A stretch of DNA of 64,000 nucleotides from Blasia pusilla. Lineage: Eukaryota. The first letter of the stretch is position 1; each line of letters starts with the position of its first letter. Where the stretch lies: assembly GCA_050084515.1 (NCBI GenBank), contig CM114271.1, positions 45,818,001 to 45,882,000 of the forward strand, given 5' to 3'. Positions 17,558 through 50,415 of this stretch are shown here, piece after piece. A model generated the notes under the pieces. That model was not told the origin of the DNA. It did not search any database and saw nothing but the letters and a program-made list of their open reading frames with translations. The position numbers and the translations under genes were made by a program.

Positions 17558-17892
17558 TGAATTAGTTATAACTTAACCAAATAGAAGATATAGGCATGCA
17601 TAATTGTAGACAAACTAAAAGACTTAAAAGTCAATTGCTTAGAACTCAACGAAATACTAACTTTCAAAAAAAAAAACTAGTTGACAATATAACTCATGGA
17701 ATTTTTTTTAAGAATGTATGATATTTTAATACCATGATATATGGTGAAGGTACCATATGAGAGTAGTGAGACACTTTGATATAGTGAGAGTGAGATAGAG
17801 AACACATTACATTAGACTTCGTCCTGGTTGGGAGTGCTCACCTTACAAGCATTCATAGGGAGATTCCAATATCAACCAAGATCAACAAATGT

Positions 17893-18079
<187 letters not shown>

Positions 18080-20337: not shown

Positions 20338-20586
<249 letters not shown>

Positions 20587-21223
20587 GCCTCAAGAAAATG
20601 TGGACCTTCCGTGATCTGCCTTGCTAATCCAGATCTTGAGATACCAAAATCATGCCGTGACACCACTTCAAATTGCGTGTGCGCCAATTATAAAGGAAAA
20701 TAAGCGCTCCTGCATTCAATAAGCTCCCATGTTGAATCAAAGAAGGAAGGCATGCAAATGTAGAAACGAAGGAAAGGAAAGCGCTCAAGAGAATAGAGGC
20801 ATGATACGTATACTCTCAAAGAAGAAACCAAGAAAATAAATGAGCATACCAACTGCCAGGCCACTCCCGATCACACTCTCCTACTACGCCACCACTCCTT
20901 GAGCGACAGAACCCAAAGAAATCAGGAGGTAGACTCGAGCCTCTTCCAATCACGCTCTCCTGCTGCACCACCACTCCCTGAGCTACAGAACCCAAAGTTG
21001 TGCACTTTGCTCGGAAGGGGCTTCAAGTCGCGGCTCAATTTTTGGCTCAAAGCTTGTCTCCGAAGACCAAAACCCTAAACCCAACGAACCCAACTCAAAT
21101 TGAGAGGGAAACTTGAAAGTAAGGACTCCCTTCTTCCCTCTAAAGCTTTTCCATAAAATTGATTTTTTTAGCTAGGAAAGCTAATTTTTGTAAAAAATCA
21201 ATTTAATATATGTAGATGTGACA

Positions 21224-21591
21224 TGTCATGACCATACGGATTATGTCGTAGAGTATAGTGTGCTAGTAGAGGCCATTCCTTATGTAGGACCGTAGTGGCT
21301 TGGTAGAGATGCGGTTCCATACATAGGGTTGGGGGTTACTCAATTGGGGGTGACTTTCCCAATAGGGCCCGCTCTTAGGTTGGAGGATATAAGGTGGAGT
21401 ACACTCAAAGAACAGTCAGTTCTTTGAGTTGAGCCTGTTGCGTTGGGAGTTAGCCTTGGTAGTGAGTAGAGCTCTTGGCTATGGTGTTTCCCGCAAGCTC
21501 CGACCTAGATTCTTCCATCATGGAGTGGGTTTGGCTCGATTGTATGTGATTGTATACGTGTTTTATGACAGTAGGTCTTTCACCGATTTCA
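21224..21591 (+). repeat. Terminal repeat A1 of Gypsy copy 1
   Basis: Matches 30325-30677 with about 6 substitutions and one 15-bp indel by eye; contains TATAA at 21388. Confidence 0.95.
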
Positions 21592-24500
21592 CTCAAAGAA
21601 CTGGAGTAGATCGATGGTAGCTTCGATTGACAGATCAAGAGGGATTTGGTTAGGGTGATTGTGTACTCAGCCGTGGATGTTCGTGGCTTGTGGCCTATGT
21701 TGGAGGTATGAATCTGGTGCGTGGTTGGTTGGGAAAGAAGCGCCTTGGTAAGAGCTTTCCAACGCGCTTTAGATCGCCAGATTTTGTCAAGGGAGTTGGA
21801 AGTTATCAAGGATTGAAGATTCTGGTTCGTGTTCAACGGTTTTCTGATGTGGAGAGCTTGGAGTGCGGAAGCTCTGTTGAAGTTCATCCAGATTGGGTGA
21901 GAGGTTCCTGTTGCTACTCGTATTGTGATCTCATGTGAATCTATCTGCTCGAGTGTGTGGAGCGTTGTGGATTTCTGCGTGCATGAAACTTGGCGGAAGC
22001 GCTGTCGGATAAGTGATTCTGGAGGTGTATGGACAACAAGTTTGTCTGATTTTTAGCTCGGAGTACAGAGCTCGGTTGTAGCTGATTTTTTGTGGAGAGA
22101 TAGCTATGGTGGTCAATTGAATTCTGGTTGAAACAGATTTGATTTCAGTCATAGATTTGTGAAGTAATTTCTGATCAAAATTTCGCGGACTAGCTCAAGG
22201 TATGGCTATGGTGGACAGCGGATCGGAGGGGTTGGTTGGTTGGTGACTCGTTCATTGTTGGAGACGCCTATCCCGTTGGGGGCGCCCTGGTTGGGCCTCT
22301 CTCCATAGCAAAGCATGGCAAAGCGTGGCGAACGGGGCGATAGAGGCTTCGAGGCAACTCGTGGTAGCTCGGGGTGAGTGGGCGTGAGAGGCGGAGTAAG
22401 GAGCAAGGAGCAAGCAAGCAAGCTTGCTTGCTTGGGCGTGAGGCAATTTTTGCAGGATTTGGGATTTGAGTGTTGCATAACTGGTCACCCATCTTTGGGC
22501 TATTCTGCCTGGAGGACGCTTAACTGCTGAGTTCTTAACTATGCCAGTGTACACACTGTTGTAGCTCATTTGGTGCTGTTCGGAGATGTGTTAGGCACTT
22601 TATGCATCTCAGGTTTTTGGTTGATGTACCTCTAGCTCATAGTACGGTGTAGCCTCTCCATGCAAGTGATATTTTCAGGTGCTGCGAGTTCGACTAGCAC
22701 GTCATCGACCCGCGGCGGAGTAGCTATTGCGTTAGAATTGTGTGGTGGGTTTTGTGGATTCATGGGGCACCACGTTTGGTGGATTATGTTACCTTGATTT
22801 CCATTTGCGATTGGAGGGTTGTCGTTGGACTTCCTGTGTTTGGATCCCCTCCATCGGTGCTTCTTGCTTGCGCGCCCATTGTTAGGGTTGACGCTGATTT
22901 CCAGAGTAGTGTTACTCCTGTGTGCTACTGATAGTGAGGCTGGAGTGATGACCAGTAGACCGTGGGAGGCTTCTTGTGGTGATGAGAGGTTAGGTTGCCT
23001 ACACCCATAGCTAGTAGAGCTACAATAGTAGAGCGACATCGACGTCACTTGGTTATTTGGTGGTGGTAATTTGGTGGTGGTGCGGCATCGGCATTGGTCA
23101 TCACGGAGCTGTCGGGTGGTCTGGTTGGGGACCGTGGTGCGGACAGTGGTGGTTTCACACGGAGTGGATTTAGGTATCGGCTACCTTTTCCACTTCCGAC
23201 GGTTGATGAAGAGGAGGACGAGGGTGTTCCAAACACCGAGTCTTCTACGTTGTTATCGAGTGTTGCAACTCCATTGATTTGGGACATGGACGGTGGATAT
23301 GGGGCCATGAAGGGCCCACGAAGATACTCGGGTGCAGTGGGTACCATTGAGTTGGAGGACTTCATGCAAGAGTTTGATACGTGGTGTGATATGCAGATGT
23401 TGTGGAACGCCACGTTGTTTACACCCTTCTTGGCTTGGAAGGGGTTGTTTCAGCACTTGGAAGGACCACCCATGGATGATTACCATGAGTTTAGGAAGGA
23501 CCATGTTGCTGAGATTGAGGCATGGAGACAATATTGGTCTCCAGGCTATGTGTCTATCACCCATGGTGGTATTGGTAGTAGTGCTCCTACTATGCCAGCC
23601 AGCCCGACGTTGAGTGGTACGAGTACGAGCCGGAGTGGAGGTACTAGTGGGGGTACTAGTGGAGGTACTAGTGCCCCACCATCGTTCAACTCGGTTGCAG
23701 AGTTCTTCAAGAGGTTGAAGAAGAACTATCAGGGAGTGAAGACGGAGAAGTTGAGGAATCTTCAGGAATTTGAGCGAAAGAGTGGTGAGAGTCTTCGTGA
23801 GGCATACACTCGTATGCGACGCTTGATTTCAGTTACCCAGGGTGTGACGAGGATCAGCGATCCGATTTTGGTATGGGATCTTGGACAGAGATTTGCGCCT
23901 TAGGGTACGTGATGCTACTCTTATGAGTGATGATTCACCCACATTGACCCATGTGTTTGCTCTATCTGAGAAGATTGAGCTTAACATGGTGAAGGAGAGA
24001 GTGGTGACATCCGCATTCAATAGGGATACATCTACTACTTCTCATGTTCAACCGCCCACCTCACAGTCTCGTAGTAGTGGTGGTGGTAGTAGTAGGGGGA
24101 GTCGTGGGGGGTACACACGACCTCATCCAAGTCCTAGAGGTACACTTGCGCAGAGACCATTGCCTTCATTTGCTACCCCGCAGCAAGGACAGTCATGTTG
24201 GACATGTGGAGGTGATCATGTTAGGAAGTTTTGTCCCCAAGAGGATGGGAGACGGACTTTGGAGGATGGGCCTCAGTCGGCCCCAACTCAGTGTGATCAT
24301 TTGCGGGAGACCAGGTCATCCTCGAGAGCGTTGCTTTGATCTTCATCCGTAGTTGAGATCAGGCCGCGGCCGTGGTGGAGTAGCTCGAGAGGTCGAGGTG
24401 GTAGAGGTGGACGGTGGTTGAGAGCCTCGGTGGCTACCCCTACCACTACGACAGAGTCGGCCTATGGTCGCCAGATTGAGTGATTGGAGCAGAAGTTGGC

Positions 24501-25909
24501 TACTATGGTCGGTATCCAAAGATAGATCACGTTCGGGAGCAGGAGCTTCCACCTCTTATGGAGGGGATGATCTCTCTTATATGGCGAGTGCATCACAGGT
24601 TGAGGCATCAGCTGCAGTTACGAGAGGAGCCACTCGAGCGTCAGAGCCACGTGGTGCTACTGTGGAGTTGGACCCACAAAGGGGTGAGGCTGGGAGGCAG
24701 GCTAGGCTTCCCTAGTCATTCTTGTTGTCTGAGGTGCTTAGGAATCCATCCATGGTTCCTACGCAGCCTATTGAGCCGACAGTGGGGACTGAGGCATCTA
24801 CATCGCGTGTAGTAGACACGGATGCAAAGATCAAAGGCAAAGATGTGCGGATGGCAACTTGATGTTGGGATCCCCATTGTTTTTGGCCACGGAGTCGATG
24901 GCTTTAGGAGTTGACTTAGCTCCTATATTTCAGCTAGCAGCCACATTGTGTGAACGTGGGGGTGTTACTGCTACACGTGTTGAGGTGGATGAGGATGTTG
25001 CGGTGGAGCGACCCTCTATGTCAGGTGTAGCATTGAGTACCAGTGCTACTTGGCAGGCAGCAGCGGCGAAGATGGATGCATTACCAGCCCGGCCAGCCAT
25101 TGATCGTGAGAGGCTTACACCTGGTGTATGTATGTTGGACAACAGTGGGATCTTCCGATTGGTGAGTCCTACAGACAGGTGTATAGACCGGATAGAGTCT
25201 TGTTAGACTCGGTGCTCAACCTTGATGTTGGGAAAGGCGGCATGTATTGGTTTGGGTATTCGGAGGTCGAGCTTGAGCCTTGCCCATTCCAGATTCAAAC
25301 ATCACTTGGAGGAGCCAATGATAGGTCTCAATTCATGACACGGGAAAAGTTTGTTTGCGGTTGAGACCAGATCATGCGATCGATAGCTCCCGGTTGGGAG
25401 TATCTCATGCGGAGTCACATAAGCCGAGTCGTATGATGTACTAGTTGGAGGAGCGATTGTACCCGATGGGTTTTCAGATGGATTATCGGATGGAGACAAC
25501 GTCTTCTTAGACCTGGTTGGCAGTCCGGGATGGACGTATGAGCCAAGTTCTTGTGAGATTTATTTATGGGGCTCGACCAGGAGGGTCTTCCCAACAAAGT
25601 GTTAGCATCTGTGGCTGGTTTTAGTGGAGTAGTCACTTGGCCGGAGACTTTTTGAGGGTAATGTTTTTTCTATGGATTCTCCTGCGCATGAGGAGGTAGA
25701 GGAGGTCCCTATTTTTGCAGCAAAGGGAATCCTCATCGTTGGATGTGCCACTTTGGAGTTCAGGCGGTGCACTACGGCAGGAGGCTTGGTGTGAGGCTAT
25801 TATACCTCACGAGGAAGAGGAGGCCCCACGGCGGACTCCTACTTCTGGTCCAGTTGGGTTATCCCCTTTGGATACTACACCCATTGTATGGTAGTATCCG
25901 CCGGAGGGC

Positions 25910-26740
25910 ATTTGTGTGTTAGATCTCTTTGGTGGGATTAGCACTGGTTTGGCTGCAGTGTTGCATGCCGGTATTCTTGTGCGGAGATACGTGTATGTGG
26001 AGCGAGATGAGACGGCCCAGTGAGTCTCATCCCGACATATTGGTCACTTGATCTAGATGGCCATGTCAAGGTCATACACGTGCTGGTCGTGGTGAGGGAT
26101 TACATGACCCTAGGTCTCGATTGTTTTGGGAGATGTTACGGGTGTTACGACATCTTCAGGTTCATCAGGCACGTGCTCTAGCTTACATTCTGGAGAATGT
26201 TCCATTGTTGGGTGACACTCGGACCCGGATGATGGCGAGTGTTCATGAGGTGCGGTCTTGATTGGACCAGCGGTGTTGTTGGATGCGTGAAGTTGGCTCG
26301 CGTGCACATCGCCCACGCTTGTGGTGGACAAACTTGTTGCTTAGGAGATTCTCGTCGAGCATATGATGTAGTGCAAGGGATCCTCGCTTACAGTGGATAG
26401 TATCTTGGATACTGGGCGACTTTCTCAAGTGGTAAGGGTTATTGATCGGTCACCCATGGCAATGGTGAACCGTGTGGGCCAGCCTAGGATGGCACTACCC
26501 ACATTTGTGAATTTTCCCTCGTCACATGCCTACAGGAAGGTGGTCCGGGGCTTGTATGGGATTCTCATGTGCGGCAGTTGGTGGAGCCTAACGCTGATAA
26601 GAGAGAGCGTGCGATGGGATTTGCTCTTTGGTGTGACAAATGGTTGCTTCTATTTCGAGGCTTCACGACGTCATGTGTTGGATCAGGCCATGGACCTGAA
26701 TTGTTTGACTTGGATTTTGAGTCTTGGTATGGCCGAGCAA
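25910..26740 (+). pseudogene. DNMT3-like C5 cytosine methyltransferase domain in Gypsy copy 1
   Basis: ICVLDLFGGISTG (motif I), YVERD (II), WPCQG at 26061 (IV), ILENV at 26193 (VI), HRPRLWWTNL (VIII), RERAMGF (IX), RRHVLDQAMD (X). Has an internal deletion and frameshifts. Confidence 0.88.
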
Positions 26741-29700
26741 GCGTCGACTTCGGACTATGTCGTGGGTCTTCCACCCTTGTAATGAGCTCGATGGCTACCG
26801 GGGACGGTAGAGGCATTGGTCAGGGGAGAGAGTAGTATTTTGCATCCTTGGAGTAAATGGGATGTAATGGCTGGGCATGTGGAGTTGGTTGCTCATGCTG
26901 GTGGAGGAGTTATTTGCTCAGATGATGGTGTAGCTAAGGGTGTACCATCTTGTAAGGGGGTTGCGTAGCAGCCAATGGCATCGTCCTCTCCCTCTAGTGT
27001 GCCAGTGGAGGAGACTTGGGAGCCATTACTTGGGCCCAAGCTTATAGGAGGTGAGAAACGACGCTTGACACAGTTCCTACGGGCTTATAGGAGTTGTTTT
27101 GCCTTTAGCATGAAGGAGTTGGGTTCTCTGGTTGGACCCGGTATACGGATTGATTTGGCTAGTGATACCCCAATCTTCCGTTTTCCCTACCGATATAGTG
27201 ATATGGAGAGGGACTTGATTAAGAGTAGGACGTTGGACCTTTTGGAGGCTGGATTAGTGGAGTTGTCGCATGGAGAGTATGCATTAGCCATTGTCATGCC
27301 TGCTAAAAAGGATATGCATAGCAACTACACGGATAGGCGGATGTGTGGAGATTACCGTCCTATCAATCGGCAAACCAAGGCTGATAAGTATGCATGCCTA
27401 CACCGAGGAGATCTTTGATGTGGTGGGACAGAAAAGATTTTCAGTATTTTGGATCTTGAGGGCAGATACCATCAATTTCCGATTCGGGAGAGTGACAAGG
27501 CCAAGACAAGATTTTGGGGTGTCAACTCATGGCAAGGATTGTTTGTACAGTGGAAATTCTTACCCTTTGGGTTGAAGAATGCACTTGCCGAGTTTCAAAG
27601 AGTGATGGACAGGATCCTAGTGTGGTTGGATTTTGTTCGGTGTTACATTGATGATATCTTGGTGTTCAAAGAACACGGTGGAGGAGCATCGATACATTTG
27701 CAGATGGTGTTTGAGCGGTTGAAAGCTCATGGTCTACGTTTGCATCCAAGAAAGTGTAAGTTCTTCCATGAGGATGTTGAGTACTTGGGTCATGAGATCT
27801 ATCCATGTGGTTTGGGAGTTCAGCAAGCAAAGGTGAAGGTAGATGTGAGTAGAGTTTGAGCATTCATGGGATTGGCGAACTACTATCGGAGGTATGTGAA
27901 AGGATTTAGTGCTATGGCAAAGCCTTTGAACCAATTGTTGAAATCAGATCAAGAGTGGCACTGGGGAGATGATCAGGAGAGAGCTTTTGTGGAGCTTAAG
28001 GCCCAGTTGGTGGCCGCGCCTATCTTGAGGAGACCTATCAGAGGGCGCCCATTTTAGTTACACACTGATTGGAGTAGGTTGGGACTTGGAGCGGTGTTGA
28101 CACAACATGATGATGAGCACATGGAGTTTGTGGTGGCCTATGCAAGTCGTTCGAATAATGCAGCAGAGTCGCGCTATAGTTCATATGAGGGAGAGTGCTT
28201 GGCAGTAGTGTGGGCTGTGGCACACTTTAGGTGTTACTTGTTTGGCACCCAGTTTATCCTTGTTACTGATCACCAACCGCTCAAGTGGTTGATGGAGTCG
28301 GACAAGCTTACAGGGAAGCTTGCACAATGGGCTCTTATCTTACAGGAGTATGACTTCCAGGTGGTACATAGAGACTGGAGTTGCCAACCTTGATGCCGAT
28401 GGGTTGAGTAGGAACCCATGTACTAGCCAAGAGGATACAATCGGGGCTAGATGGCATGGCGAGGTTGATGAGGAGATGGTGCCAGTTGGCATGCATCCGC
28501 CTTTTATGTTGGTTAGGGATGGACTCTAGTATGGAGGACCACATGATATCTTACTCTAGTCGAGGGTAGATGGCCACCTTCAGATCTTAAGGTTGAGATG
28601 GTGGTATGGATCAGCGTGATATTCATGATGATGCGTTAGTGTTGGAGTTCCTACGGACCAAGAGGGTGCCAGGCATAGTGAGTGCCAAGGAGCGAGACCG
28701 TGTTCTTCAACGTGCTAAGAGGTATCGATTGAGGGAACCCATATTCTCGCGTGTGGGAGGATGGTAGAGTACGAGTAGTGCCACATTTGGCTCAGAGAGA
28801 GCGCGACAGCGACATGCCCATGAGGAGTTGGGAAATTTTGGGTAAAGCGACGTAAAGCTTACTCCTTGGCCAAGACATTGGTGGCGTGGCATGCATACTC
28901 AGATGCAGCAGCTTGGTGTCACGTTGTATGGTTTGTGACCGGTGAGGGCATCATTTAATGCCCCTACACCACAATTACACCCTTGCCTATTATGGGGTTG
29001 GTTTACCGTTGGAGTGTGGACTTTTGCGGGACGTTACCGTTGATCGACATCATCATCGATATGTGTTGGTGATGGTGGAGCACTTCTCCAAGTGGATTGA
29101 GTTGGTGGCATTACGGGACAAGGCAAGTGAGGGAACGGCGTATGCATTTCTGGATAGAGTGCTTAGTCATTTTGGTGCACCAACCGAAGTCTTGACCGAC
29201 CAGGTCTGAGTTTGTGGTGAGTTTGGTCTTGTGTGACAAGGCGTTGATTGATCATCGGACCACATCTCGAGATCATCCAGAGGCGGATGGTTTGGCTGAG
29301 CGTGTGGTTCGAGGACGGTGAAGAGGGCATTGCGCAAGTATGGCCTCTGAAGGGCATCTTGAGACAGGATGTTCGGTTGCCATGGTTAGCCATGGGGTAT
29401 AGGGTTTAGTCGCCAAGCATCCTTGGCTTCCTTCTCACCTTATTTTTCTGTTATATGGCGAGATCTAGACTTGCCAAAAAGAATTGTCGGGGAGTCTAGT
29501 GAGGTGGTGAACCTTGATGACCCAGAGATGTGGATGAGGGTGTGTTCTCGGCGGAGCTCTTTCGAGAGTTATGCCACAACGGCCTTTGAGAATCTTGCCA
29601 TTGCTCAACACAAGGATACGTTTGCGGTATGCAACCATTCGAGGTGGAGGTTATCGACCATCGATTCAGAGGTTCCATGTGGGGACTATGTCTATTTGCA

Positions 29701-30216
29701 GCAGATTGCACCGACAACGTTGGATGTGACGCGCAGCCGCACTATTTTACGAAGTGCGCGAGGTGTTACCTTCCGGAGTTCTCATGTTGGAGGGTCGTGA
29801 TGGAGTTGTTTGGAAGGACCATGTGCGTAATTGTGCGCCATGTCATCTTCCAAATGTGGATGGTAATGTTGACCCAAGCTTAGCCATGATATTTGCTAGC
29901 TTGAGGTGCATGTTGTGTGGATCACTGGCAACGCCCGTATGTTGGTGTGTGATCGGTGTTCTAGGGGTTGGCACATGATGTGTTTGACTCCACGTATGGA
30001 TGTTGTTCCTAGTGGAAGGTGGGTTTGTCCTCGATGTACTTAAGAGAGGTAGATGACTTGATCTTTGCATGATATGGATTACAGATGTGCGACTAACGAT
30101 GGGGCAACCTAGCACCCGGCCTTCTGATTCGGGCACCCAAGAAGGTGTATAGCATGTAGTAGATGTATAGGGCTACCTGGGAGTTAGAGGGACCTAACCG
30201 CAAATTAGGGGGGCGA

Positions 30217-30783
30217 GTTGTGGTACACTTGTGTTTGTGGATACTCTCGTCTATGTTATGTATGTATGTGAGTATGGTATGTCAGCAATGTATGTTGTAT
30301 GACGATGTGGATTTGCACGACAACTGTCATGACCATACGGATTATGTCGTAGAGTATAGTGTGCTAGTAGAGGCCATTCCTTATGTAGGACCGTAGTGGC
30401 TTGGTAGAGATGCGGTTCCATACATAGGGTTGGGGGTGACTTTCCCAATAGGGCCCGATCTTAGGTTGGAGGATATAAGGTGGAGTGCACTCAAAGAACA
30501 GTCAGTTCTTTGAGTTGAGCCTGTTGCGTTGGGAGTTAGCCTTGGTAGTGAGTAGAGCTCTTGGCTATGGTGTTTCCCGCAAGCTTTGACCTAGATTCTT
30601 CCATCGTGGAGTGGGTTTGGCTCGATTGTATGTGATTGTATACGTGTTTTATGACAGTAGGTCTTTCACGGATTTCAGTTGTGGTACACTTGTGTTTGTG
30701 GATACTCTCGTCTATGTTATGTATGTATGTGAGTATGGTATGTCAGCGATGTATGTTGTATGACGATGTGGATTCGCACGACA
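30217..30783 (+). repeat. 3' terminal block of Gypsy copy 1: B1 (30217-30322), AC spacer, A2 (30325-30677), B2 (30678-30783)
   Basis: B1 and B2 are 106-bp direct repeats with 2 differences seen; A2 repeats A1. Confidence 0.95.
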
Positions 30784-33679
30784 GACATGTATAAACCCTA
30801 TCTTATCTTAAAATCTTTGGTGGAAGGAAGACTAATAAAAAAGACCCTATTGTTCTTATAAGAGTTTGATGGAATAAATTATGCCCTATTGTTCTTCCAC
30901 AAAACTTAATAAGTCTTCCGAGGGACGCAATTAAAAAACCCCTAACTTTTTCGCACGTGATGGGGCATTTGTGTGGAAGTGAGACCCCCGAGGACCCTCA
31001 AAACCAAATGAACACCAAATATGTGCCAAACGGAACATCAAAAATCTAGTGGACTCACACTACGATAATCGCGTTTTGGAGAGGCTTTTGGAAAGGTCTC
31101 TTGGTAAAGTCCAAAAGACGAAACGCGGAATAGAGTTGTGCATTTCATGTGTTTGTGGTTGCAACCAGGAAACTTGGACCAAACGTGAACCAAGACTTGA
31201 GATGAGTTGAGTCTTGGAAGGTTGGTTGCCATAGAGGTGAGAATCAATTTTCGAACACGACTAGTGTTTGGGGATTTTGATTGCGTTTTGGACCATAAAA
31301 TTTAGTCCCAAGATGTATTCGGAACAAATAAATACGCGTTGGAAAGCTTATATTGAGACGCTTCCAACACACCAAAAACCTCATCAAACGCATAAGTACA
31401 AGCTGAGATATCGGCCAAAAACAATTGTGAGAGCAATCGGGTTGAGGGCCAATCTGGGGGGGCCCAACTGTCTTTCCCTAAAGTTAGGGGGAGGGCGGGG
31501 ATCCCCAGAAGTACTAGTACTGGGAGTCTCTCCAAGGATTCTTGGAACACGAACCCCACTTTGAGCACCAAACGGCGTCTGAAGGGCACGGGATGGAACG
31601 GGAGTTTGGCGTTAGAACTCGAAACCCAAACTTGATGCAAGGGAGTGGACTTCGTAAGCCACACTTGGATTCCAACCCGCGATTCATTTTTGTGACTTGC
31701 GAGTAGGGACTCATTGGATGTCCATTGGACAATTGGAACCGCCAAGCATTCAAACTCCATTTGAGGTTCCTCAACTGACATAAATTTTGTCCCAAGTCTT
31801 CAAAGACTTGCATGTGTTGTAAACCGCGAAATTAGGAAGGTTGAGCTTGATGAGAGGCCGAGTCAAGAACTCGGCAAGTTAGAACCGCTGATTGATCCAG
31901 ACCTGACTAATGTGAGTGCGTGTTTGGATGCAGATCAACGTTGAGAGCGTGTCCTACTAAATGCATGCTTCCGCAACAACGAAGATTAACGTTCAAGGAG
32001 AATAGACCCACAACATAAGGTGACTTGGCAAAAAAAATCATTTTTTTGTCCTAGTCTTTGATGGGTTTAACTAAAGACTTCCTTGGACTGTAGGAACTTT
32101 TCCACTTTTTCCAATGTGAATTTATTTGTTGAACTTCAAGTTTGTTATTATCTTCTACTTATTGGTGATGGTAGTTGATGTTACTTGATCTACACTTGAA
32201 TATCATCATATGTCAATAAATGATACTTGAAGAAACTAATTATTGGTGTTGATAATTGATATATCTCTTCATTTGAATATCACCTTGCAATCAACAAGCT
32301 TAATTATATTAAAGAGGTAAGACTCTTAACGCAAGACTCTAGATATGAAATTTGCCTCAAAACTCTTTTATTGAAATGAAAATATGCAATAAAGTTTTTG
32401 ATCCAACTTGCTTGTTCATACTAGACTATGGTAGTAAATGTGATTGTATTGTCATGTTTTCCACAAAGCCTTCACCAAAGGCTGAAAAATTAACCTTAAC
32501 GTACCATACATCAAAAGTGGACCCTCGCCGAAGTCCTTAAAAAGTACCTCCCTCCCAAGCTGTAAATGGAGCTCTTCTATATAGATATTTGGCTAACAAA
32601 ATTTTCAGGAGCATTAAAACAAGGATGCTAAAATTGGCTAGTAAAGCTTGCCCCAACAAACTTAAGTATTCACAACTAAAAAATTTACATCATAATTTTT
32701 TTCAAGAAGGGAAATGATCAATAAATTCCTACATGTAAATATTCATAAAATAATAATTGCTCTCACTAGTGATATCATGTTACAAAAATTATACCCTCAT
32801 TCTCGAGTGAAATTAGGTGCCTATTAGGTACTCATGCAATGCATGAGAGAGGTACACGTAACTAGCCCCCAATCTATCCCCACGGCTCTAATTGACCCCA
32901 GATTTACCCGACAAACTCCGAACCGACCCCTAACTTGATTGACGTCATAATTGACTCTAAATCACCAAGAACACATGTTAAACGTGAGTGGGTAAAAATA
33001 TGAGATGTCAACGGGAGAAGAGTTTTGGAAAATTAAAGGGAACTTTGCAATAATAATATAGATCATATGTCAAGAATATTGTAATTTCCTTCTTACGGAG
33101 CTTAGAGGAAAACCATTGTCCTCGGATCCCATGGACCTCAACCCTTCGGGCTCATGGTTAGAACAACCATACCGACATTGAGACACTGCATGTGGAATTC
33201 CACTTCACATTCAAATGGGTCTCTTCCCCTCATGCCATCATTTTCCCTGTCGGTTTCTCGATAAAGCGTAACTAGAAAGAGGAGGTATAAGGACTTGCAC
33301 CATGCCTCCTCAGGTCCCATTTGATGCGCGTAGAAAAAAAAATAGACCATAGGGTCAGACGTCAAAATCCCTAATTTCTATATGATCAAATTCGGTCCTC
33401 GAATGCGGAGTGCCCGGGAGGTGGCTGCACACACTCTAAACTCCAGAATCTAATAATATTAAACTTTCTTTTATGTAAATAGAAGTCATCCATATTCAAA
33501 CACTAGAGGACTATTCAAATTTTAAAAAGCCCTCTTCCTCCTTTCCCTTCTTCATTTAATTGTGTCCTCTTACTTGAACTCCTCTTCTTAAAGTGATATG
33601 TGTCAAAACCAAAAGAACTCTTAGAAGACATGTGTCGACGCATGAAGTTTCTTTTAACTCATCTTCTTTTAATTTTTTA

Positions 33680-39416: not shown

Positions 39417-40177
39417 TGTCGTGCACATACACATCGCTACATAACATACATCGTTGTCATCGAACACACACAAACACACACGATCCCATGCTGACTCATG
39501 GCATCCATACACAGAGGCGAGAAGCACCAAAATATCTCCAATCTGTAAAGTAAGATCCAATCTCTCTGTACACCATCTCACACCATAGCATTCAAAGATG
39601 TGCACTATCTCTCATGTCAAACCAAACTCATTCTCCTAATAAAAGGCTTGGGTTACACTCACAAGGCAAGGAACCATAGGTCCGCCGCCTCATGCCAAGA
39701 GGTTCAACAAAGAGAGAATGAGCTCCCAAGTTCTCTTTCCTTGAGGTATACCCCTCCCCTCTCCCAAGCTCTCTCCATGGTAACCTATTCTCCCAAGTCA
39801 CCTCTTTGGCTCTTGACCTGATGTAGGAGGTCAAGGGCCACTTACCAAAAATAAAAAGTCGATCATATATTGAGAATGGTACTTACCTAAAATAGTAAGT
39901 TTCTAAATATGGTCCAAATGAGCCGAAATGAAGGGGAAACCTGCTCTCTCAGGTTTCCTTGGGCCTCAACACGCCATCCTCGAATTCATAGGCCTGTCCT
40001 CCACTACTCGTGCAGACGCTTTGCTAAATCCCACCGATATATCCTAACAATCGTGGCAGCTGTCGTGCGCATACACATCCCTACACAACATACATCGCTG
40101 TCATCGAACACACACGATCCCATCCTAACTCATGGCATCCATACACAAAGGCGAGAAGTACCAAAATATCTCCAATC
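39417..40177 (-). repeat. 3' terminal block of Gypsy copy 2: B1 (40177-40061), GC spacer, A (40058-39544), B2 (39543-39417)
   Basis: 39417-39543 and 40061-40177 are direct repeats differing by a 10-bp indel and substitutions; the element ends GCACGACA. Confidence 0.92.
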
Positions 40178-43100
40178 GCCCCCTAGTTGGTGGTTAGGTC
40201 ACTCTAACTCCAGATAGCCATCTATCCCTACCTACCACGACATACATCTCTAGGACGCTAAGAGCAGAAAGGCCGGGTGCTCATGTGGCCCCATTGTTAG
40301 TCGCCTTCATGTCATCCATGTCACAGAAAAAGTCGGAATCGAAACCTACCTAGTTTCTCCTCTATGTACATGTGGGACACATCCATCGTCCCCGAGGAAC
40401 CCTAGTGAGAGGTGGCGTCAGACATGCCATATGCCAACCTCTCGAACATCCATCATAGACTAGCATCGTGGCCGCACCACGAGCATAACCACACAACATA
40501 CAACGCAAGCTTGCAGGAACTACTACTAAGCTTGGATCTATTGCACCATCAATGTTAGGAAGGTGACATGGCGCACAATTACGCACATAGTCCTTCCATA
40601 CCATACCATCGCGTCCCTCCAGCAAGAGAGCACCGGATGGCAAAACGTCACGCACTCTCAGGATAGTGCGCCTTGTAGTCACATCCAACGTCGTCGATGC
40701 CGTCTGCTGTAAGTAGACATAATCTCCTTGATGAAACCTCCGGATAGTTGGTCGATAATCACACCCCGAATAGTCGCATACCTCAACGTATCCCAATGCT
40801 GCGCAATCGCCAAGTTCTCGAACGCCATGGACATCACTCTCTGAAACAACTCAGCCCTTTGAGAACATGCTCGCATCCATACATCTGGGTCATCAAGGTC
40901 TAACACCTCACCAGCATCTCGACGAATGGCCGTAGGTAAATCTGGCTCTCGGCCATAAAGTAGCAAGTACGGTGAAAAAGATGCTAAGGATGTCTGTCTG
41001 CTGAATATGTATCCCATTTGCCAACCATGGCAACTGGAGGTCCCAATCTCCTAGGTGACCTCTCTGCAAGGTCTTCACCATCTGCACAACTCTCTCCACT
41101 AATCCATCCGCCTCGGGATGATCTCGCGAAGTCGTGCGGTGGTTGATCAACGGCTGATCACACAAGGCCTGGAACTCACCGCGAAACTCGGTACCCTGGT
41201 CTGTCAACACCTCAGCCGGTGCGCCATAATGTCTCAACACTCTATCAAGGAAGGCATAAGCCACTCCCTCACTTGCTTTGTCAGGCAATGTAACCAACTC
41301 GATCCACTTCGAGAAGTGCTCGACCATCACCAACACATAACGACTGTGATGTTCTGTCAAAGGAAAAGGTCCTGCAAAATCCAAACTCCATCTATATCCT
41401 AAGCCCATGATCGGTAATTGATGCAACTGTGGAGTCGGAGCATTGAACGATACTTGGACCCGATCACACACCATGCACTTGGCAACAAACTGGTGAACGT
41501 CAGTCTGCATGCCTCGCCACCAATACTTAATCTGGAGCAAGCTGTACGTCTGCTTCACCCCAAAGTGACCCAACTCCTGGTGGGCATGCTGCACTAGTTG
41601 TGCTCTCTGCAAAGGATGCAGCACTACGCATACTCTACCATCCTCCCAAACCCTCAAAACATGTGTCCCCTCCAAACGGAACTGTCTGGCCCGTTGTAGG
41701 ATCCAATCCCGCTCTCTAGCACCCACGGTGCTTGCAACGCTACCAATACAAAGGTACTCCAAGACTACTCCATCATCATGAATATCTCAGCCACCTGTGG
41801 TCTCCTCACTGGCCTCGGGATCCAAGGACTCTCCACTAGACCTCGCCATCGAAGTCTCCACACTTTGGCTCTCCATAGCCAACATGCCTAAATAGGCTGA
41901 CGCGTGCCATCCTGGCACCAACTCCTCATCACTCTCTCCATGCCATCGAGCTCTAGTCACATCTTGCTGACTCGGGCATGGGTTACGACTCAACCCATCT
42001 GCATCTTGGTTGAGCGTCCGAGGTCTATGTACCACCTGAAAATCATACTCCCGCAACAACAGAGCCCATCTCGCAAGCTTCCATGTAAGCTTGTCGGACT
42101 CCATCAACCACTTGAGTGGTTGATAATCAGTGATGATGGTAAAGGGGTTTCTGAATAAGTAACACATGAAATGCGCGACAACTTACACCGCAGCCAAGCA
42201 CTCACCCTCATACAAGTTGTACTTCGCCTCTGCAGCGTTGTTCGAGTGGCTAGCGTAAGCCACCACGAACTCTCTACCCTCATCATCATGCTGGGTGAGC
42301 ACCGCTCCAAGCCCTAACATGCTCCAATCTATGTGCAATTGGAAAGGACGCCCCCTGATCGGTCTCCTCAAGATGGGTGCAGACGTCAACCTGTCCTTGA
42401 GCAATTGAAATGCTCGCTCTTGCTCATCCCCTCAGTGCCACTCGTGATCCACTTTGGTCAGCAAGGTCAGCGGCTTCTCAATCGAACTAAATCCCTTGAT
42501 GTACCACCGATAGAAGTTCGCCAATCCCATGAATGCGCGAACACGGCTCACATCTGTAGGGCGTGGAATGCGTGAGATAGCCTCTACCTTCGTTTGATGA
42601 ATACCAAGGCCCCCTGGGTATATCGTATAACCCAAGTACTCAATCTGGTCGTAGAAGAACTTGCACTTGCCTGGATGTAGCTTCAGCCCATGTAATTGCA
42701 ATCGTCAAAACACCTCCTCTAGATGTCGCTCATGCTCCTCAACCGTGGCGCTAAAGACTACGATGTCATCAATATAACACCTAACAAAATCCAGACTAGC
42801 CAAGATCCTATCCATGACCCTCTGAAACTCAGCCGAGGCCTTCTTTAACCCAAATGGTAAGAACCGCCACTAGTACAAACAATCCTTCCCGTGAGGATCG
42901 ATGCCCCAAAATGTTGTCTTTTGCTTGTCCTCCAATCTGATTGGCAGCTGATGGTATCTGGCTCGCAAATCCAATGAATTGAAGATCTTTGCCTGACCAA
43001 TCGCATCAAAGATCTCCTCACGGGTGAGCATGGCATACCTATCGGACTTTGTCTACCGATTGATAGGTCGATAATCTCCACACATCCGCCTATCCGTCCA

Positions 43101-43724
43101 GTTGCCATGCACATCCTTCTTAGCGGCCATAATAGTGGCAGATGCATACTCCCCATACGACATCTCCACTAGTCCTGCTCCAACCAAGTCCTGGCTCCTA
43201 CTCTGAATCAAAGCCCTCTCCATATCACTGTACCTGTAGGGTCGTCCGAAGATCGGTGTATCACTCGACAACTCAATGCGGATCCCCGGTCCCTTTAGCG
43301 TACCCAAATCCTCCATGGTAAACGCAAAGCAGCTCCTATAACTCTTGAGGAACTGATGTATTTGGCGCCGCTCTCCTCCTGTCAACTTAGGGCCCATATT
43401 TGGCTCCCAAGTCTCCATCGTGACTACGGTAGGACTCTCCACCGCGGGTATCGGTGGTTGCTATGGTGCAACCCCGTCTCGAACAACAACAATCGGCCTC
43501 TCTCCGGCAGCCAATTGTAAACTCTGATCTCCTCCACGTGGAGTGCCCGTAACCACGCTCGATGCTGTGGCTATCATCTCTTGGCGTACCTGCAAAACAT
43601 CCCAAGAAGTCCAAGGGTGTCTCTCTCGATCTCCCCTAGTGTGTAGATCTCTTCAGGTCTCGTCCCCAACCACTACTTCCACCATCTCGGTAGGCATGGA
43701 GCCCACCAATGCAATCCCTATGAT

Positions 43725-44710
43725 CTATCGCGATCTCATACGACGCTGCTCAACCATTCCCAAGCTGAGGATCCATGTCAAGTAGTTCAGGTCCATTGCT
43801 TGACCCAAGACATGGCGTCGTGATGCCTCTGACAGTGACGATACTGCCGTCACTCCTGGGGGAAATCCCATCGCTCGCTCTCTCTCGTCGGCGTTGGGCT
43901 CCACCAACCGCTAAACCTGGTCATCCCAAACCAAGCCAAGATCGGCCTCCTTGTATGCATAGGAAGCGGGAAAACTCACAAACGTGGGCAAGGCTACCTG
44001 CGGCTTGCCTACCCTGTTGACCACAGTCAACGGTGGTTGATCATCGTGCCTCACTGCCTATGAGCAATGATCAGGATCCAAAATAGAATCCACTAACAAA
44101 TGGGAGGGGCGCTCCACTCTCGCATACGCCCTCCGTAACACCGCATCGGGCACCAAGTTGGTCCACCATAGACGCGGGCGATGGGTTGTAGAACCTACAC
44201 TCGCCGCGTCCAAGAACACTGCTGGGCCAATCCAGGCACGCACCTGATGAGCACTCGTCACCATCCGTGACCTGGAGTCTCCTAAGATCGTCACATTCTC
44301 CAGAATGTAGGTTGGAGAATGAGACTGGTACTCCTGCAACTACCGTAAGACCCTCAACATCTCCCAAAATAACATGGATCGAGTGTCAACCAACCCACTG
44401 CTTTGTCCAGCACTCGATTGGCCTTGACATGGCCAATCGGAAATGACCAAATAAATGGTGCCTAACCGGTCTAAGTCCTGTGTCCCCAGCAATGAAATAT
44501 CCCTCGGTAGGGAACTATGGTACCCTTGTACCGCGGACGCAGACAATAAGTCAGGAAAACATAGGCATAACTGCGCCACATGTCATAGTGAGACGCGTCT
44601 CGCAACATCATCTCTCTCCACATACACGTGCTGCTGCACTCGCACTCATGCCTACAAAACAGCAGCTAACCCGGTGCTAATCCCTCCAAAGAGATCTAAC
44701 ACTCCAATAT
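43725..44710 (-). pseudogene. DNMT3-like C5 cytosine methyltransferase domain in Gypsy copy 2
   Basis: IGVLDLFGGISTGLAAV, YVERD, DWPCQGQS (44424-44432), YILENV (44292-44300), HRPRLWWTNL, ERERAMGFPPG, RRHVLGQAMD; one frame interrupted by stops. Confidence 0.92.
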
Positions 44711-45310
44711 CCTCCTTCGGGATACACCACACAATGGGTGTGGTATCCAAGGGTATCATCGTAACACTCCCTGCTACCTCGGGTTCCTCAGACATGTCAC
44801 GCTCCGGTGCAAACGCCTCGCTCCACACGATCTGCACGTGCTCATCTGCCAATCGTCGAAGCTCCTCAGTCGAGCCCCACAACGGAACCTCTCCTCCACG
44901 GAATGATGCGGCTACCTTAACACTCCTCTCTATAGAAATGTCAGGAACTGGAGTATCCTCTGCATGGACATGTCCCTCAATCAAATCACTGGGCCAAGTG
45001 ATGGCACTGCTAAGGTCGCCATCTCTCCTGGCCGTTGCTCGATCACTGCACCTCTGAATCAAACGGGTAATGAGCTAAGACGCCCATCATCTGACTGCCA
45101 TCCTGGTCTGTAGGACGCTGACTCCTCCCAATAATCCAATGAAAATCCCATCGAATATAACACTGCTCTACTAACCAAGACGTCGTAGGAGTCTGCATCA
45201 GTCACTATCGCCTTGGCTCGCACCACGGACTCATCTGTAGGATGTCCCAAGCGAATCTTCACCACGACCTCCTGTCGGGTGATATATTGTGTGGTACTCG
45301 CTCCACCCAA

Positions 45311-45516
45311 GCCTTCTCAATTATATAGGATATGTACAAGTAACCCTAACACTAATCCTAATCCTAACCATAGTCCCGAGCTATATTAAGTATAGTCAAC
45401 TAATCCTAGTTAAGATAATCATGCTTAACTAACTAACTAACCAAGATCAAGCTTTCCTACTTTGTATGTAGCAGTTTGTATATCCGATGAGTTCGATTAT
45501 AACTCAATCTTCAATA
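45311..45516 (-). repeat. Truncated LTR of the same Copia family as 49-4543
   Basis: Reverse complement reads TATTGAAGATTGAGTTATA...GTTAGTTAGTTAAGCA...CTTGTACATATCCTATATAATTGAGAAGGC, matching the first ~200 bp of the Copia LTRs. Confidence 0.9.
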
Positions 45517-46029
45517 TTAGGGACTGACACATCCATATAGGCTCGACTATCTCCATCTTGCATCCGGGCTAGCCTTGCCCGCATTCCCAAACCCAATCTT
45601 GATTGTGCACTGCACCCCTCCCTCCTCTGGGTTGCATCCCTCATGCAACCTCGACACGCATCCATCCCCTGTAGGAGGGGCGTAGGCAAGATGTGCGCGG
45701 GATGCCTTGGTAGGGTGTGGGCAGACAACCGCCGACATGGGAGTTAGGTTTTCTTATTATTATTTTTTCATTTTTTAGAATAAGAAATATTTTCTTAAAA
45801 AATAAATTACAAAATTCCCATGTATTGCGTGTACCGATAGGATGTAGGCAGGGTTCGAGTTACATGGGTCCGCACCCCACTTGTATCCCTCTTGCATCTG
45901 GCGTGCATAGGAAAGGTGCAAGCCAAATGCTAAAGGGATCTAGGCAGGGGTTGCAATAGAGAAGTGGGCTACATGAGGCATGGTGCAAGAACATGTGCAG
46001 AATGACATTTTCGAACTAGTTCAGAAAAG

Positions 46030-47462
46030 TCCGTCCCATGGATTGACAAGTCCATTTTTGTGCAACCTTGGGTAAATCCCAATTGCAATGTACAAAAATA
46101 TTGTTAAAGAAAAGATGAGCTACTTCCAACACCGTAACAATATTTTAGTTAGAAGGAAAACTCCCATCTTAGAAAATCAATCTACCACTACCATGTTTGA
46201 GTTAAATCCTTTCAATTCAAGTAATCCTATGGTAAAATCCATAGCAATACTTTCCCATCGTCCACATGGAATTGGCAAAGGTTGAAGAAGGCTCGATGCT
46301 TGCCATAATTTGTTTGGTTCTTTTAGCAAACCAAACACACTTTATGGTATCCTTGTCTTGAGATGGCTTGTAGGAATATTTCTAAAGAATATCTAAGGTT
46401 GATACTTGACTTGGATGTCCCACATGAGGTGCATCATGATGAACCTTAAGAACCTTTATCTTTTAACTCTCAAAAAATATATATCCTTTTTTCTTGAGTT
46501 TAGTGTTCCATTTTACAATACCATCCACAAGTACAATGCGTCTCACGCTTGCCCCCTTCTTCAGAGCTCCTAACCATCCTTGGGCCATTTCATCGAGTTG
46601 GCAAGCCACCTTCTCCAAGTTTCTCGAATTGATTTCCAACACCCAAGTTCCTCTCAAATATTTCTCTTGCCTACTCAAGGCATCAACTATCATATTTTCC
46701 TTGCTTGCTTTATAAAAAAATTCCATATCGAATCTTGCTAGGTATTCTTGCCAATAGACTCATTTTGATAATAGCTTCTCCTAACTCGAAAAATACTTGA
46801 AAATGATATTGTCGGTGTAAACCTTGAAGTGTGGACTATGAAACAAGTATACTTGCCACTTCTTGAGGCAATGAATTACCACATACATCTCCCTTTCATG
46901 ATCATGAGTTATCTAGTTGTTCTCTAACTTGGTTGACTCGTAAGAAATTGGTCAACCTGCTTGTTTCAACACTCATCTAATCACAAAGATAGATGCATGG
47001 TTCCAAACTTCAAATGGGATCCCGATTTCTGACAACTTGAGTACATGAGGGTCGCTTATTAGAAACTCTAATTTCTGAAATACCTCTTCACACTCCTAAG
47101 ACCATTAGAAAAATGTTGCTTTCAGTGTTAAGTCATAGTGTAGTTTAGCAATCTTGGAAAAATACTAGATGTATCTTCTATAGAAAGTGACAAATCCAAC
47201 AAATGACCATCTTTCGGTCAAATTCCTTGGCGTTGGCCATAACTTAATAGCCTCAAGCTTATCATGGCTAGGTCGTATGCCCAAAATTTTCAATGTGTGT
47301 CCCTAGAATTCCATGAGGAATTCCATTTCTTGGACCATGAAGCAATGCTTAGAAAATTTCATGAAAAGTTTGTTCTTCCTCAAACGCACCAAGACTTCTT
47401 TGGGGAGAACCTTGTGTTTCTCTTGGATCTTCAAATATATAAGTATGTCATCAAAGAACATC
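46030..47462 (-). mobile_element. Decayed fragment of an unrelated, conventional Gypsy pol (RT end, RNase H, integrase start)
   Basis: VFFDDILIY (~47430-47460), YKASKENMIVDALSR, HDAPHVGHP, RWESIAMDF; many stops. Confidence 0.8.
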
Positions 47463-49024
47463 ACTCACGGGCGCTTGAACCCTCGTCACTTTCCTCTTGG
47501 CCTCCCCACTAACCTTTCTCTTCACAAGCGGTGACTCCTTGGGTTCATCCCTTTGGGTATTTAAGCACTTGAGATCAAGTTCCTCCAACGAGTTGCTACG
47601 AGACTTGGGTTGAAGTTTTTGCCAATTGGTGTTTCGTCCCCCAAACCACCATCCTAATTGGGTAAGTCATTGAAGTCTCAAGGGAGGTCGGGCCTAATTA
47701 GCTCATTCATATTACCCCGCAAACCTTCCCCAAGCCGAGGGGGTTCGAGATCCATGACCTTCTTCTTACTCTTACGAGGCTTGTCCTCATCCTTGGCCAT
47801 GCTAATTATTGCCACTGAAATCTCCCACTAACCATGGCCTATTCAATGGTGTATTTTTATACCAAATCATAGAGTCTGACTACTAGTTCTCCAAGATTTC
47901 CCTCAAAGCACTCATAACCTTGAGATTTATAAGTGAAAGACTTAGTTTGAGTCCCAAAGACTCAACAAGTTTGCTCGTTTGGTAGGTAGTGAGAAACTGC
48001 CAAGTGCAAATCATATTGATTCTCCCCTATGCGTACGGTCTCCATTATAAGTCTCTTCCCCAAGCCTCGACCAATCTCCCTAAGTCGCTTGTCTATACCA
48101 AATTAAAGCGTGTTGGCTAATTCCTTAAGGTGTGTCCAAGTAACTCAAACTGAAGACACAACTAAACATGCATCAAGGTTAGTTCCTAGTTCAAGGACTT
48201 GAGCGGGTAGGGAGGGAGAGTGTCCTCCCCTATAGGTACTTCTAGGGTTCTTCAGGGGAACCCCATCTTCCATATTGCTCCCCTTGGACCCTTAATTTTG
48301 GCCCTGAACCCAAACGTAGTTTGCGACCCACAGACCTACGTTAACGTTCCACTAGTTATTCATCAAGATTGCTTGGCGAAGGCTTCTTACGGATTATAAA
48401 ACTCTCAACTTCTCAAATGCATCTTTGAGCTTGGATCCGCATTTATGTGTCTCATGGCTAGCGTCTATCTTAACTCCCGATTTGATGTCTATGGTTGTCT
48501 TGCTGCCCTTTGTGTTTTGTAACTAGTCTTGAGGCGTCTTTCCCATCTTGACTAGTTACGTGTTTCTTGCTTCTCGCCCTTGACTCAAAGGTCTCAAACG
48601 TTAGGTGCTTGTCTTTTTTCCTTGCCAATAGATATGCTCCATATATTCTTGCCTACGGCTAGTCAGAAGACACATGCATGTCTCGCCTAGCATTTGTCTC
48701 GCGGTTGATCCCACGGCCCTTCCCAATCTCGTAACTAGCTAGTCTAGGTTCCGACTTTAGTGGTTCATGCTAAGGTCTTTCCTCCCTAGACCCAAGATTA
48801 TAATTCACTTCCCATGTTTTGCGTAAATCCCTATTGTGAATATAGTTTGCTTTTCATTTCGAGAAGTGGCCCTTGATCCACTATTGTAGATAAAGAGCCA
48901 AACAGATGGATTGCAAACACATGTTACTAAGAAGACAACTTTAAGAGATGAAAAGGATATACCCTCAGAGATTTGTGGTCCTCCTTGTCCAAGCCTCTCA
49001 CTAGGAGAGTGGGTTTGGTTTGAC

Positions 49025-49026
<2 letters not shown>

Positions 49027-49064
<38 letters not shown>
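49027..49064. repeat. (GA)19 microsatellite
   Basis: Perfect dinucleotide run. Confidence 0.95.
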
Positions 49065-49069
<5 letters not shown>

Positions 49070-49720
49070 GTTCCATATACCATTAGAAATATTTTGGTAC
49101 ATGATTGTCTATATGTATAGATGGCATGAGTGGGTATTTTTATTTTATTTTTATGTATGTGTGGATGGTGACATCGATATATATTGTGTAGCGATGTTTA
49201 TGTCCACTATAGGTATTCTAACATGGATAGAAGTGCGGTACTACTTTTGGGTGTGGAGAGAGATGAGAAAATATGGTCATGTTAATCTTGATGTGTTGGT
49301 TTGGCATCATTGGCTCATCTTACCAATTTTAGGAGCGTGGTTTTTTATGAGCTTGTATGGAATATATTCCATGATTGAGTAGAGGTGGAACATGCAAGTG
49401 GAAGTGTAGTCAAGATGTTAGTTGCAAATGGTTGTTTGTGAGGAACAATGGTCTAAGGCATTCTTGATGTCAATCTTGGGTGTGCTTCCTTTGGGTGATG
49501 GCTATCCTAGATGTATAGTATGCTACATGATCAATTGTCATCACAAGTGGGCAACTAACAATTGAGCAAGTCACCATCCAATCTCTTGATCTTCTCACCA
49601 AAAATATGCATATAATTTTAAATGGGTCGGCTGACTACCTAGAGTTGGAAAGACCTAACCATTAGCTCGAGGAGGGGGATTGTGTGTCCCTTTAACATCT
49701 GCATGATGATGTGTACTTAT

Positions 49721-50415
49721 ATCCCATAATTGACATTTTTGACACTTTCCTACTTGCATGAAACAAAATGTTATAGCATAAATTGCTTATCAACACTTGT
49801 ATCCTAAACCCCAAACGCGACGTCTCCTCACTATTTGTTTGTAAAATCAAGACAACGTATTTCTGCGTGAATTTACAAGGTGATGTCCATGTGACTAGCT
49901 CTGAATTAAATGTTCGAGAATCAAACTAGACATCCGGTATGCTGCCTCCAAAAGGGCCATATATTGGTTTCATCCATAGGAAACAATCCCATAATTGACA
50001 TTTTTTGGCACTTCTAAATCCCAAACGTGACGTCTGCTTGCTATTTGTTTGTAAAATCAAGACAACGTATTTGTGTGTGAATTTGCAAGGTGATGTCCAT
50101 GTGACTAGCTCCGAATTAAATGCTCGGAATCATAATAGACGTCCGGGATGGTATGTCCAAAAGGGCCATACATTGGTTTCATCCCTAGGAAACAATCCCA
50201 TAATTGACATTTTTTGACACTTGCCTACTTGCATGAAACAAAATGTTATAGCATAAATTGCTTGTCGGATTACTATCCTAAACCACAAACGCCACTTCTC
50301 GTCACTATTTGTCTCTAAAATCAAGACAATGTATTTCTACGTTTGAAGGTGTGAATTTGCAAGGTAAACTCCATGTGACTAACTCCGGATTAAATGCTTT
50401 GGAATCAAACTAGAC
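49721..50415. repeat. Diverged tandem repeat, about 3 units starting at 49721, 49986 and 50195
   Basis: Each unit begins ATCCCATAATTGACATTTTT and contains AAAATCAAGACAA and CCATGTGACTA. Units are 265 bp, 209 bp and a partial third. Confidence 0.9.

Follow-up and report, generated by a model that had tools for sequence, protein, structure and literature searches.

Two element copies and the B-A-B end of the family

The window analysed here, a 64-kb stretch of contig CM114271.1, carries at 39417-40186 on its minus strand the genuine 3' end of a 5'-truncated Ty3/gypsy-type element with a DNA methyltransferase and an integrase, which we refer to as copy 2; a full-length member of the same family, copy 1, occupies 21224-30783 on the plus strand. 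A first reading made from the letters alone (hereafter the sequence-only reading) had described the end of copy 2 as a polypurine tract (PPT) followed by a repeat B, a longer repeat A and a second B, and all of these parts are present at the lengths it had given. Across 127 aligned columns the two B repeats show 85.8% identity, with a single 10-nt indel, and A contains a TATA-like GGTATACC. From the 3' end inwards through the interrupted coding region, copy 2 comprises the following parts.

39543-39417, minus strand: B2, the terminal repeat, 127 nt, with the element's final bases GCACGACA
40058-39544, minus strand: A in the A2 position, 515 nt, beginning TGCCACGA
40060-40059, minus strand: 2-nt spacer GC of the B1-A2 junction
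40177-40061, minus strand: B1, 117 nt
40186-40178, minus strand: PPT ctagggggc, directly adjoining B1
40362-41786, minus strand: integrase (H2C2 zinc domain, rve core), then a C-terminal PHD finger; frames interrupted
41787-43460, minus strand: RNase H and reverse transcriptase fragments
44058-45074, minus strand: C5 cytosine DNA methyltransferase fragments, with PF00145 at 44340-44582
45059-45316, minus strand: protease-like fragment, recognised by eye and without a Pfam match

Among ten copy 2 fragments, Pfam matches were obtained to PHD, rve, Integrase_H2C2, RT_RNaseH, RVT_1 and DNA_methylase, and a motif I-like DLFGG and an ENV were seen by eye in adjacent methyltransferase fragments. An unrelated repeat truncates copy 2 near 45320, and neither an A1 nor a gag homologue for this copy was found anywhere in the 64-kb window. 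Exactly at the truncation point, at 45311-45517, lies an inverted relative of two direct repeats (79-345 and 4269-4538, 4190 bp apart and 82-83% identical) that resemble the long terminal repeats (LTRs) of another small element.

Copy 1 retains both ends and reads A1-internal region-PPT-B1-AC-A2-B2, with B absent beside A1. Its parts, which include a primer-binding site (PBS) and flanking target-site duplications (TSDs), are listed below.

21220-21223, plus strand: 5' TSD GACA, 4 bp
21224-21591, plus strand: A1, beginning TGTCATGA, with a TATA box at 21384-21393 and a PBS-complementary stretch at 21417-21429
21591-21603, plus strand: PBS ACTCAAAGAACTG, the reverse complement of 21417-21429
23070-30212, plus strand: gag and pol, heavily interrupted; gag zinc knuckle recognised by eye
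30207-30215, plus strand: PPT aggggggcg
30216-30322, plus strand: B1
30323-30324, plus strand: 2-nt spacer AC
30325-30677, plus strand: A2, 94.3% identical to A1 with a 15-nt indel
30677-30783, plus strand: B2, 98.1% identical to B1, terminating the element
30784-30787, plus strand: 3' TSD GACA

Over pol (25865-30212 in copy 1), the two copies can be aligned and share 68-78% of their nucleotides. As the sequence-only reading had it, the A repeats of the two copies are dissimilar, with no blastn match at E<=1e-3, and the tail of B is conserved, the match covering the last 44-64 nt of B at 75-84% identity.

We assessed the wider family by scanning metagenome contigs with the 292-aa integrase frame of copy 2, which recovered 80 loci at 49-73% identity; a scan of viral_contigs returned no relatives. 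A and B were mapped in the 80 loci using six A/B pairs drawn both from the window and from the loci themselves, and distinct insertions were counted by their 3' flanks. An integrase followed by PPT-B-NN-A-B is present in 21 of the 80 loci, representing 15 distinct insertions from subfamilies with unrelated A sequences. In a further 26 loci, or 21 distinct insertions, PPT-B passes straight into flanking DNA without A2-B2 (L003, L010, L018, L019, L022, L024, L027, L029, L031, L034, L039, L043, L045, L048, L050, L052, L053, L055, L056, L061, L064, L068, L073, L075, L076 and L079), and in the remaining 33 the downstream sequence is too short, too diverged for the queries, or partial. The 19 loci that have a 5' A show neither B before A nor A-B-A upstream of pol, and the canonical arrangements B-A...B-A and A-B...A-B are found at none of the 80. 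The family thus lacks two complete direct LTRs, its 5' end being A only and its 3' end B-A-B, and copy 1 and related loci instead carry the split direct repeats A1...B1-A2-B2 that characterise the DIRS order. Overall, the PPT-B-A-B layout is a trait of the family across subfamilies whose integrases are about 50-70% identical. Within a copy, A1 and A2 are 85-94% identical and B1 and B2 80-98% identical, whereas A cannot be aligned between subfamilies, which indicates that both repeat pairs are renewed in each cycle.

The coding order of the family is gag, protease, a Dnmt3-like C5-methyltransferase, reverse transcriptase, RNase H, a DDE integrase and a PHD finger. Locus L054 has two long frames with one stop codon between them, in which Asp_protease_2, DNA_methylase, RVT_1, RNase H, H2C2, rve and PHD were identified. 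In both copy 2 and L054, PF00145 sits between protease and reverse transcriptase, and the best solved-structure matches of the L054 methyltransferase are DNMT3A, 3B and 3C at an E value of about 2e-7. By Pfam, copy 2 and L054 follow the protease-reverse transcriptase-RNase H-DDE integrase order of Ty3/gypsy elements (Metaviridae), and no match to the tyrosine recombinase family PF00589 was obtained in the 10 copy 2 fragments or the two long L054 frames.

The B1-A2 junction and the ends of the integrated unit

According to the sequence-only reading, the boundary between B1 and A2 is an att-like junction conserved in both copies, which should be enriched next to members of the family. Both strings that it quoted are present, and a scan of the window for GCACGACANNTGYCAYGA with <=1 mismatch, in which chance was gauged by expectation and by 100 shuffles, returned two matches, at 30315-30332 on the plus strand and 40051-40068 on the minus strand. 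The expected number is 0.01 and none of the 100 shuffles reached two; both matches fall exactly on the B1-A2 junction, downstream of the family's pol. When the motif is relaxed, 14 of the 80 related loci contain it a single time each, invariably at this same junction, which is a conserved feature beside pol throughout the family. In the copies read, the spacer measures 2 nt but varies in sequence (GACA NN TGTC).

The integrated unit runs from the first base of A (TG) to the last base of B (CA) and is bounded by the inverted sequences TGTC...GACA. We compared the flanks of 13 elements, namely copy 1 and the 12 loci in which both termini could be placed (eight perfect, two agreeing at three of four bases and two unmatched), and perfect 4-bp TSDs at A-start and B-end are present in 9 of the 13, against a chance of 1 in 256 per element. 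These are GACA in copy 1, AAGG in L009, TCTC in L021, AATC in L047, TACA in L022 and L045, ATTA in L039, TGTG in L052 and TTCA in L076. Short TSDs and TG...CA ends are both features of Ty3/gypsy elements. In DNA run X1, three contigs link the two flanks of copy 1 with the element absent (joints 21214>30784, 21219>30785 and 21220>30785); these are paralogous or allelic empty sites, with matched sides of 20-24 nt.

Because the 4-bp duplications flank A-start and B-end, the element was inserted by a DDE integrase and not by a recombinase. Tyrosine-recombinase elements of the DIRS order are not known to make TSDs, and membership of that order is further contradicted by rve in place of PF00589 in the Pfam results. 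Since A-start and B-end are the integrated ends, the B1-A2 junction consists of two integrase-recognised ends abutted 2 nt apart, and the att-like character proposed for it gains support from the identity of its TGTC...GACA sequences with the ends of the integrated unit. Every sequence test that we could apply indicates a functional junction.

These boundaries also bear on other explanations of the layout. A canonical LTR element, with an LTR of B-A or A-B, might have been rearranged after insertion or mis-assembled, making B-A-B an accident; the window holds a single full-length copy and the metagenome contigs are short-read assemblies, as such an explanation would have it. Against it, B-A-B stands at both 3' ends in the window and at 15 distinct metagenome insertions of several subfamilies, the duplications flank exactly A-start and B-end, and no B-A...B-A or A-B...A-B locus was found. 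We therefore consider this explanation very improbable and reject post-insertion rearrangement, given that the layout recurs in distinct insertions with TSDs at A-start and B-end.

Alternatively, B could be an independent small element, such as a miniature inverted-repeat transposable element or a solo repeat, inserted twice near a 3' LTR, and the sequence-only reading had itself named B1 and B2 as a possible inserted element with TSDs of its own. B is indeed a short unit with TG...CA bounds, but its edges are those of the PPT, A and the element: B1 always starts at the PPT, B2 always extends from the last base of A to the element's end, and no duplication of its own accompanies it. It also diverges together with the element: B1 and B2 of a single copy share 80-98% identity, compared with 75-84% for B between the two window copies. 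With its edges fixed in this way, B as a separate element is scarcely credible, and we rejected it. A third candidate, in which the LTR is A and B2 a long target duplication, was rejected on the grounds that every copy conserves B1 in an internal position.

Reverse-transcription ends and a proposed cycle

The PPT adjoins B1 in all 17 copies listed except L068, whose pair is an unrelated repeat; in every subfamily B1 starts right after the PPT, and B2 starts at the same base. At the other end, the end of A1 coincides with the start of the PBS, so that the element has the PBS after the 5' repeat and the PPT before the 3' repeat that are expected of Ty3/gypsy elements. Within A, ~30 nt downstream of the TATA box, lies a stretch of which the PBS is the reverse complement, over 13 nt in copy 1, 17 nt in L009, 10 nt in L047, 16 nt in L054 and 15 nt in L062 (the last compared against the A of L040). 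Pairing is thus kept in five elements of four subfamilies, and since the paired sequences differ entirely between subfamilies, it covaries. Immediately past the TATA box of A, at 21403-21429 and again at 30489-30515, there is an inverted repeat of 11 bp (ACTCAAAGAAC agtca GTTCTTTGAGT); its left arm is identical to the PBS, and equivalent hairpins occur in L009 and L054.

Tf1 undergoes self-primed reverse transcription, its PBS being complementary to its own transcript. As in Tf1/sushi (Tcn1) elements, the PBS of the present family lies beside the 5' repeat and is complementary to the element's own sequence downstream of the predicted promoter and not to a tRNA 3' end, an arrangement that suggests Tf1-like self-priming. 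The likeness concerns the PBS arrangement, as Tf1-type elements have two ordinary LTRs, unlike the family described here.

At the A2-B2 boundary, the end of A is precisely joined to the start of B (TTTCA followed by GTTGTGG). The genomic form A-PBS-coding-PPT-B-A-B has the same content as the B-A-PBS-coding-PPT-B-A that canonical reverse transcription would give, circularly permuted by one B. L021 (10837-10858) and L023 (2669-2690) have an extra 20-22 nt between A2 and B2, which end in CGA, the last bases of the PPT, and partly repeat the end of A; the insert looks like imprecise joining of cDNA ends.

The same layout could arise by end restoration of the DIRS/Ngaro kind, in which an RNA without both tips is reverse transcribed and B1-A2, like the internal complementary region of DIRS-1, serves as a splint or template that completes the cDNA ends before integrase inserts the resulting linear or circular DNA. 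The layout is identical to the A-coding-B-A-B arrangement of tyrosine-recombinase elements (PMC5890265, Fig. 1e legend; excerpts of PMC4157794), and an internal junction copy is shown to be essential for DIRS-1 in excerpts of PMC7192593. Here, however, the PPT stands at the left edge of B and a self-complementary PBS at the right edge of A in all subfamilies, and these positions predict canonical strong-stop transfers with ends at B-start and A-end, which renders a splint unnecessary. A tyrosine recombinase was also not found by Pfam in copy 2 or L054, and TSDs are present. On balance we regard restoration of this kind as rather unlikely.

The explanation that we favour as a whole, with somewhat better than even confidence, is a split-repeat Gypsy family with canonical self-primed reverse transcription, joining of the cDNA ends and an integrase cut at the B-A junction. 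Sense RNA would span A1 to within A2, and canonical self-primed reverse transcription, as in Tf1, would yield a linear DNA, B-A-PBS-coding-PPT-B-A, whose ends (B-start and A-end) would be out of phase with those used by the integrase (A-start and B-end). The A2-B2 boundary in every genomic copy would then represent the two reverse-transcription ends joined together, either by circle formation or by a plus strand that reads on from the end of A into B. Integrase would cut both strands at the B-A junction on the PBS side, 3' of each CA, generating two recessed CA-OH ends with 2-nt 5' overhangs, and A-...-B-A-B would be inserted with a 4-bp duplication, the internal B1-A2 being a further copy of this site carried with it. 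If the linear DNA has the read-on form B-A-...-B-A-B, the only products would be A-...-B-A-B, A-...-B and solo A-B, and the absence of A-B-A-coding-B would be accounted for.

A more specific formulation, which we put forward tentatively, holds that the integrated form is a circular permutation of the reverse-transcription product, that joining of the cDNA ends is obligatory, that an internal palindromic att junction (GACA-NN-TGTC) is cut in the manner of insertion sequence (IS) circles, convergently with the split repeats of tyrosine-recombinase elements, and that A-coding-B copies are dead-end by-products. Cleavage of abutted ends at circle junctions is known from IS3- and IS30-family circles and from integrase acting on retroviral 2-LTR junctions in vitro. 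In these systems, too, two end sites lie a few bp apart and both strands are cut to give integration-ready ends; their junctions are transient or off-pathway, whereas in the present family a copy of the junction is fixed in every integrated element.

Transcription was examined in three raw-read RNA runs bearing the same species label, in which reads from diverged copies were placed at 90% likeness, about a third of them only partly. Sense reads exceed antisense reads 10-100 times over the whole element in these runs. Depths of 57-90 give way to 11-15 in the last bin (30583-30900), where B2 lies, a drop that fits an RNA ending before or near B2. In DNA run X1, each bin over 21100-30900 has a summed contig depth in the tens of thousands. 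The family is present in its host in very high copy number and is transcribed there, and it was also detected at small shares in air metagenomes. Separately, 4 and 6 RNA reads (runs X21 and X22) span a joint, 30627>21253, that connects A position 303 with A position 30, 9375 back, and may come from a rearranged copy.

Several points weigh against the favoured cycle. We infer the joining step and the choice of junction, and cDNA intermediates were not observed. A plain 2-LTR circle predicts cuts at either B-A junction, and one outcome only is seen. L055 and L063 are the two of the 13 elements without a TSD, the A1 start of L063 being damaged, and L063 and L021, which are degenerate, lack a perfect PBS complement of at least 8 nt, amounting to two of the five elements in that test. 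The starts of RNA reads are most frequent at 21385, a position that falls within the TATA box and 32 nt short of the predicted start at 21417; this peak may reflect clipping, as reads of diverged copies were placed at 90% likeness. Finally, the A-coding-B copies may be real dead-end insertions, deletions between B1 and B2, or products of short-read assembly in which the B-A-B loop has collapsed. Of eight tested loci in which PPT-B runs into flank, five have 4-bp duplications that match between A-start and B-end, and each insertion keeps one class across samples, none switching between B-A-B and B only. All metagenome B-A-B copies have B1/B2 identities of <=98.1%, which fits collapse of younger copies. 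In L054 and L057, the loci with the least interrupted frames, used for domain annotation, PPT-B-A leads into PBS and leader; these contigs probably follow the repeat graph and are hence uninformative on B2.

Comparable known elements, significance and other features of the window

An A-coding-B-A-B element with Gypsy domains is in print as KnitGypsy-Dnmt3 from Klebsormidium nitens (de Mendoza et al. 2018, PMC5890265, Fig. 4c legend), and the Fig. 1e legend of the same paper gives 'A-coding region-B-A-B' as the arrangement typical of DIRS retrotransposons. The DIRS/Ngaro/PAT layout is termed split direct repeats in excerpts of PMC4157794 and PMC7192593, a 2026 preprint names 'streptophytes (Gypsy-DNMT3)', and PMC6317226 mentions self-priming in the plant Tcn1 clade. 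By its published description, the basis of the comparison in place of sequence, KnitGypsy-Dnmt3 resembles the present family in having a Gypsy-type Pol that contains a Dnmt3-type methyltransferase together with DIRS-like repeats; it differs in host, the present family residing in a plant-like genome with relatives on metagenome contigs. The split-repeat Gypsy-DNMT3 kind is thus already in print, and the present family is a further member of it by all three of its descriptive features. The main-text portions of PMC5890265, its supplements lying outside the search, yielded no TSD, PBS, PPT or mechanism for the KnitGypsy-Dnmt3 layout, and a full-text literature search with the same scope for that paper found no TSD, PBS, PPT or replication-model account for integrase-type split-repeat elements. 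Ngaro, PAT-like and SymbioDIRS-Dnmt3 elements (PMC4157794, PMC7192593, PMC5890265) share A1-coding-B1-A2-B2 and an internal copy of the joined ends near the 3' end, but their enzyme is a tyrosine recombinase, and they have neither a DDE integrase nor a protease, whereas the present family combines a DDE integrase and 4-bp duplications with a PPT and a PBS.

In textbook LTR retrotransposons, the ends made by reverse transcription are the ones that become integrated, whereas here the two sets of ends would be out of phase by one repeat unit, even though the integrase is of the ordinary kind and so are the target duplications that it leaves. If the proposed cycle is true, split direct repeats would no longer be diagnostic of tyrosine-recombinase elements, automated LTR finders would mis-call elements of this kind, and the family would offer a natural system in which a retroviral-type integrase acts on an internal junction.

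A third, old and degenerate remnant of the family lies elsewhere in the window, with no B found upstream of its A.

48778-49207, plus strand: 3' two thirds of a copy-2-like A, then B

Long (GA)n microsatellites occur at 17897-18077, 20341-20586 and 49027-49067, one of which interrupts the A of this remnant. On the minus strand, an open reading frame (ORF) at 46463-46759 includes a motif similar, on visual inspection, to the RNase H/integrase linker of plant chromoviruses, with no Pfam match at E<=0.001, and an ORF at 16967-17572 gives weak matches to NSD-like PHD fingers. Pfam comparison of ten other ORFs in the window yielded no match indicative of the host's identity. An ORF fragment at 59098-59706, also on the minus strand, matches the Pif1 helicase 2B domain (E 8e-13) and may be a Helitron-type remnant, and a tandem array at 49804-50390 comprises three ~210-nt units that are 61-91% identical.

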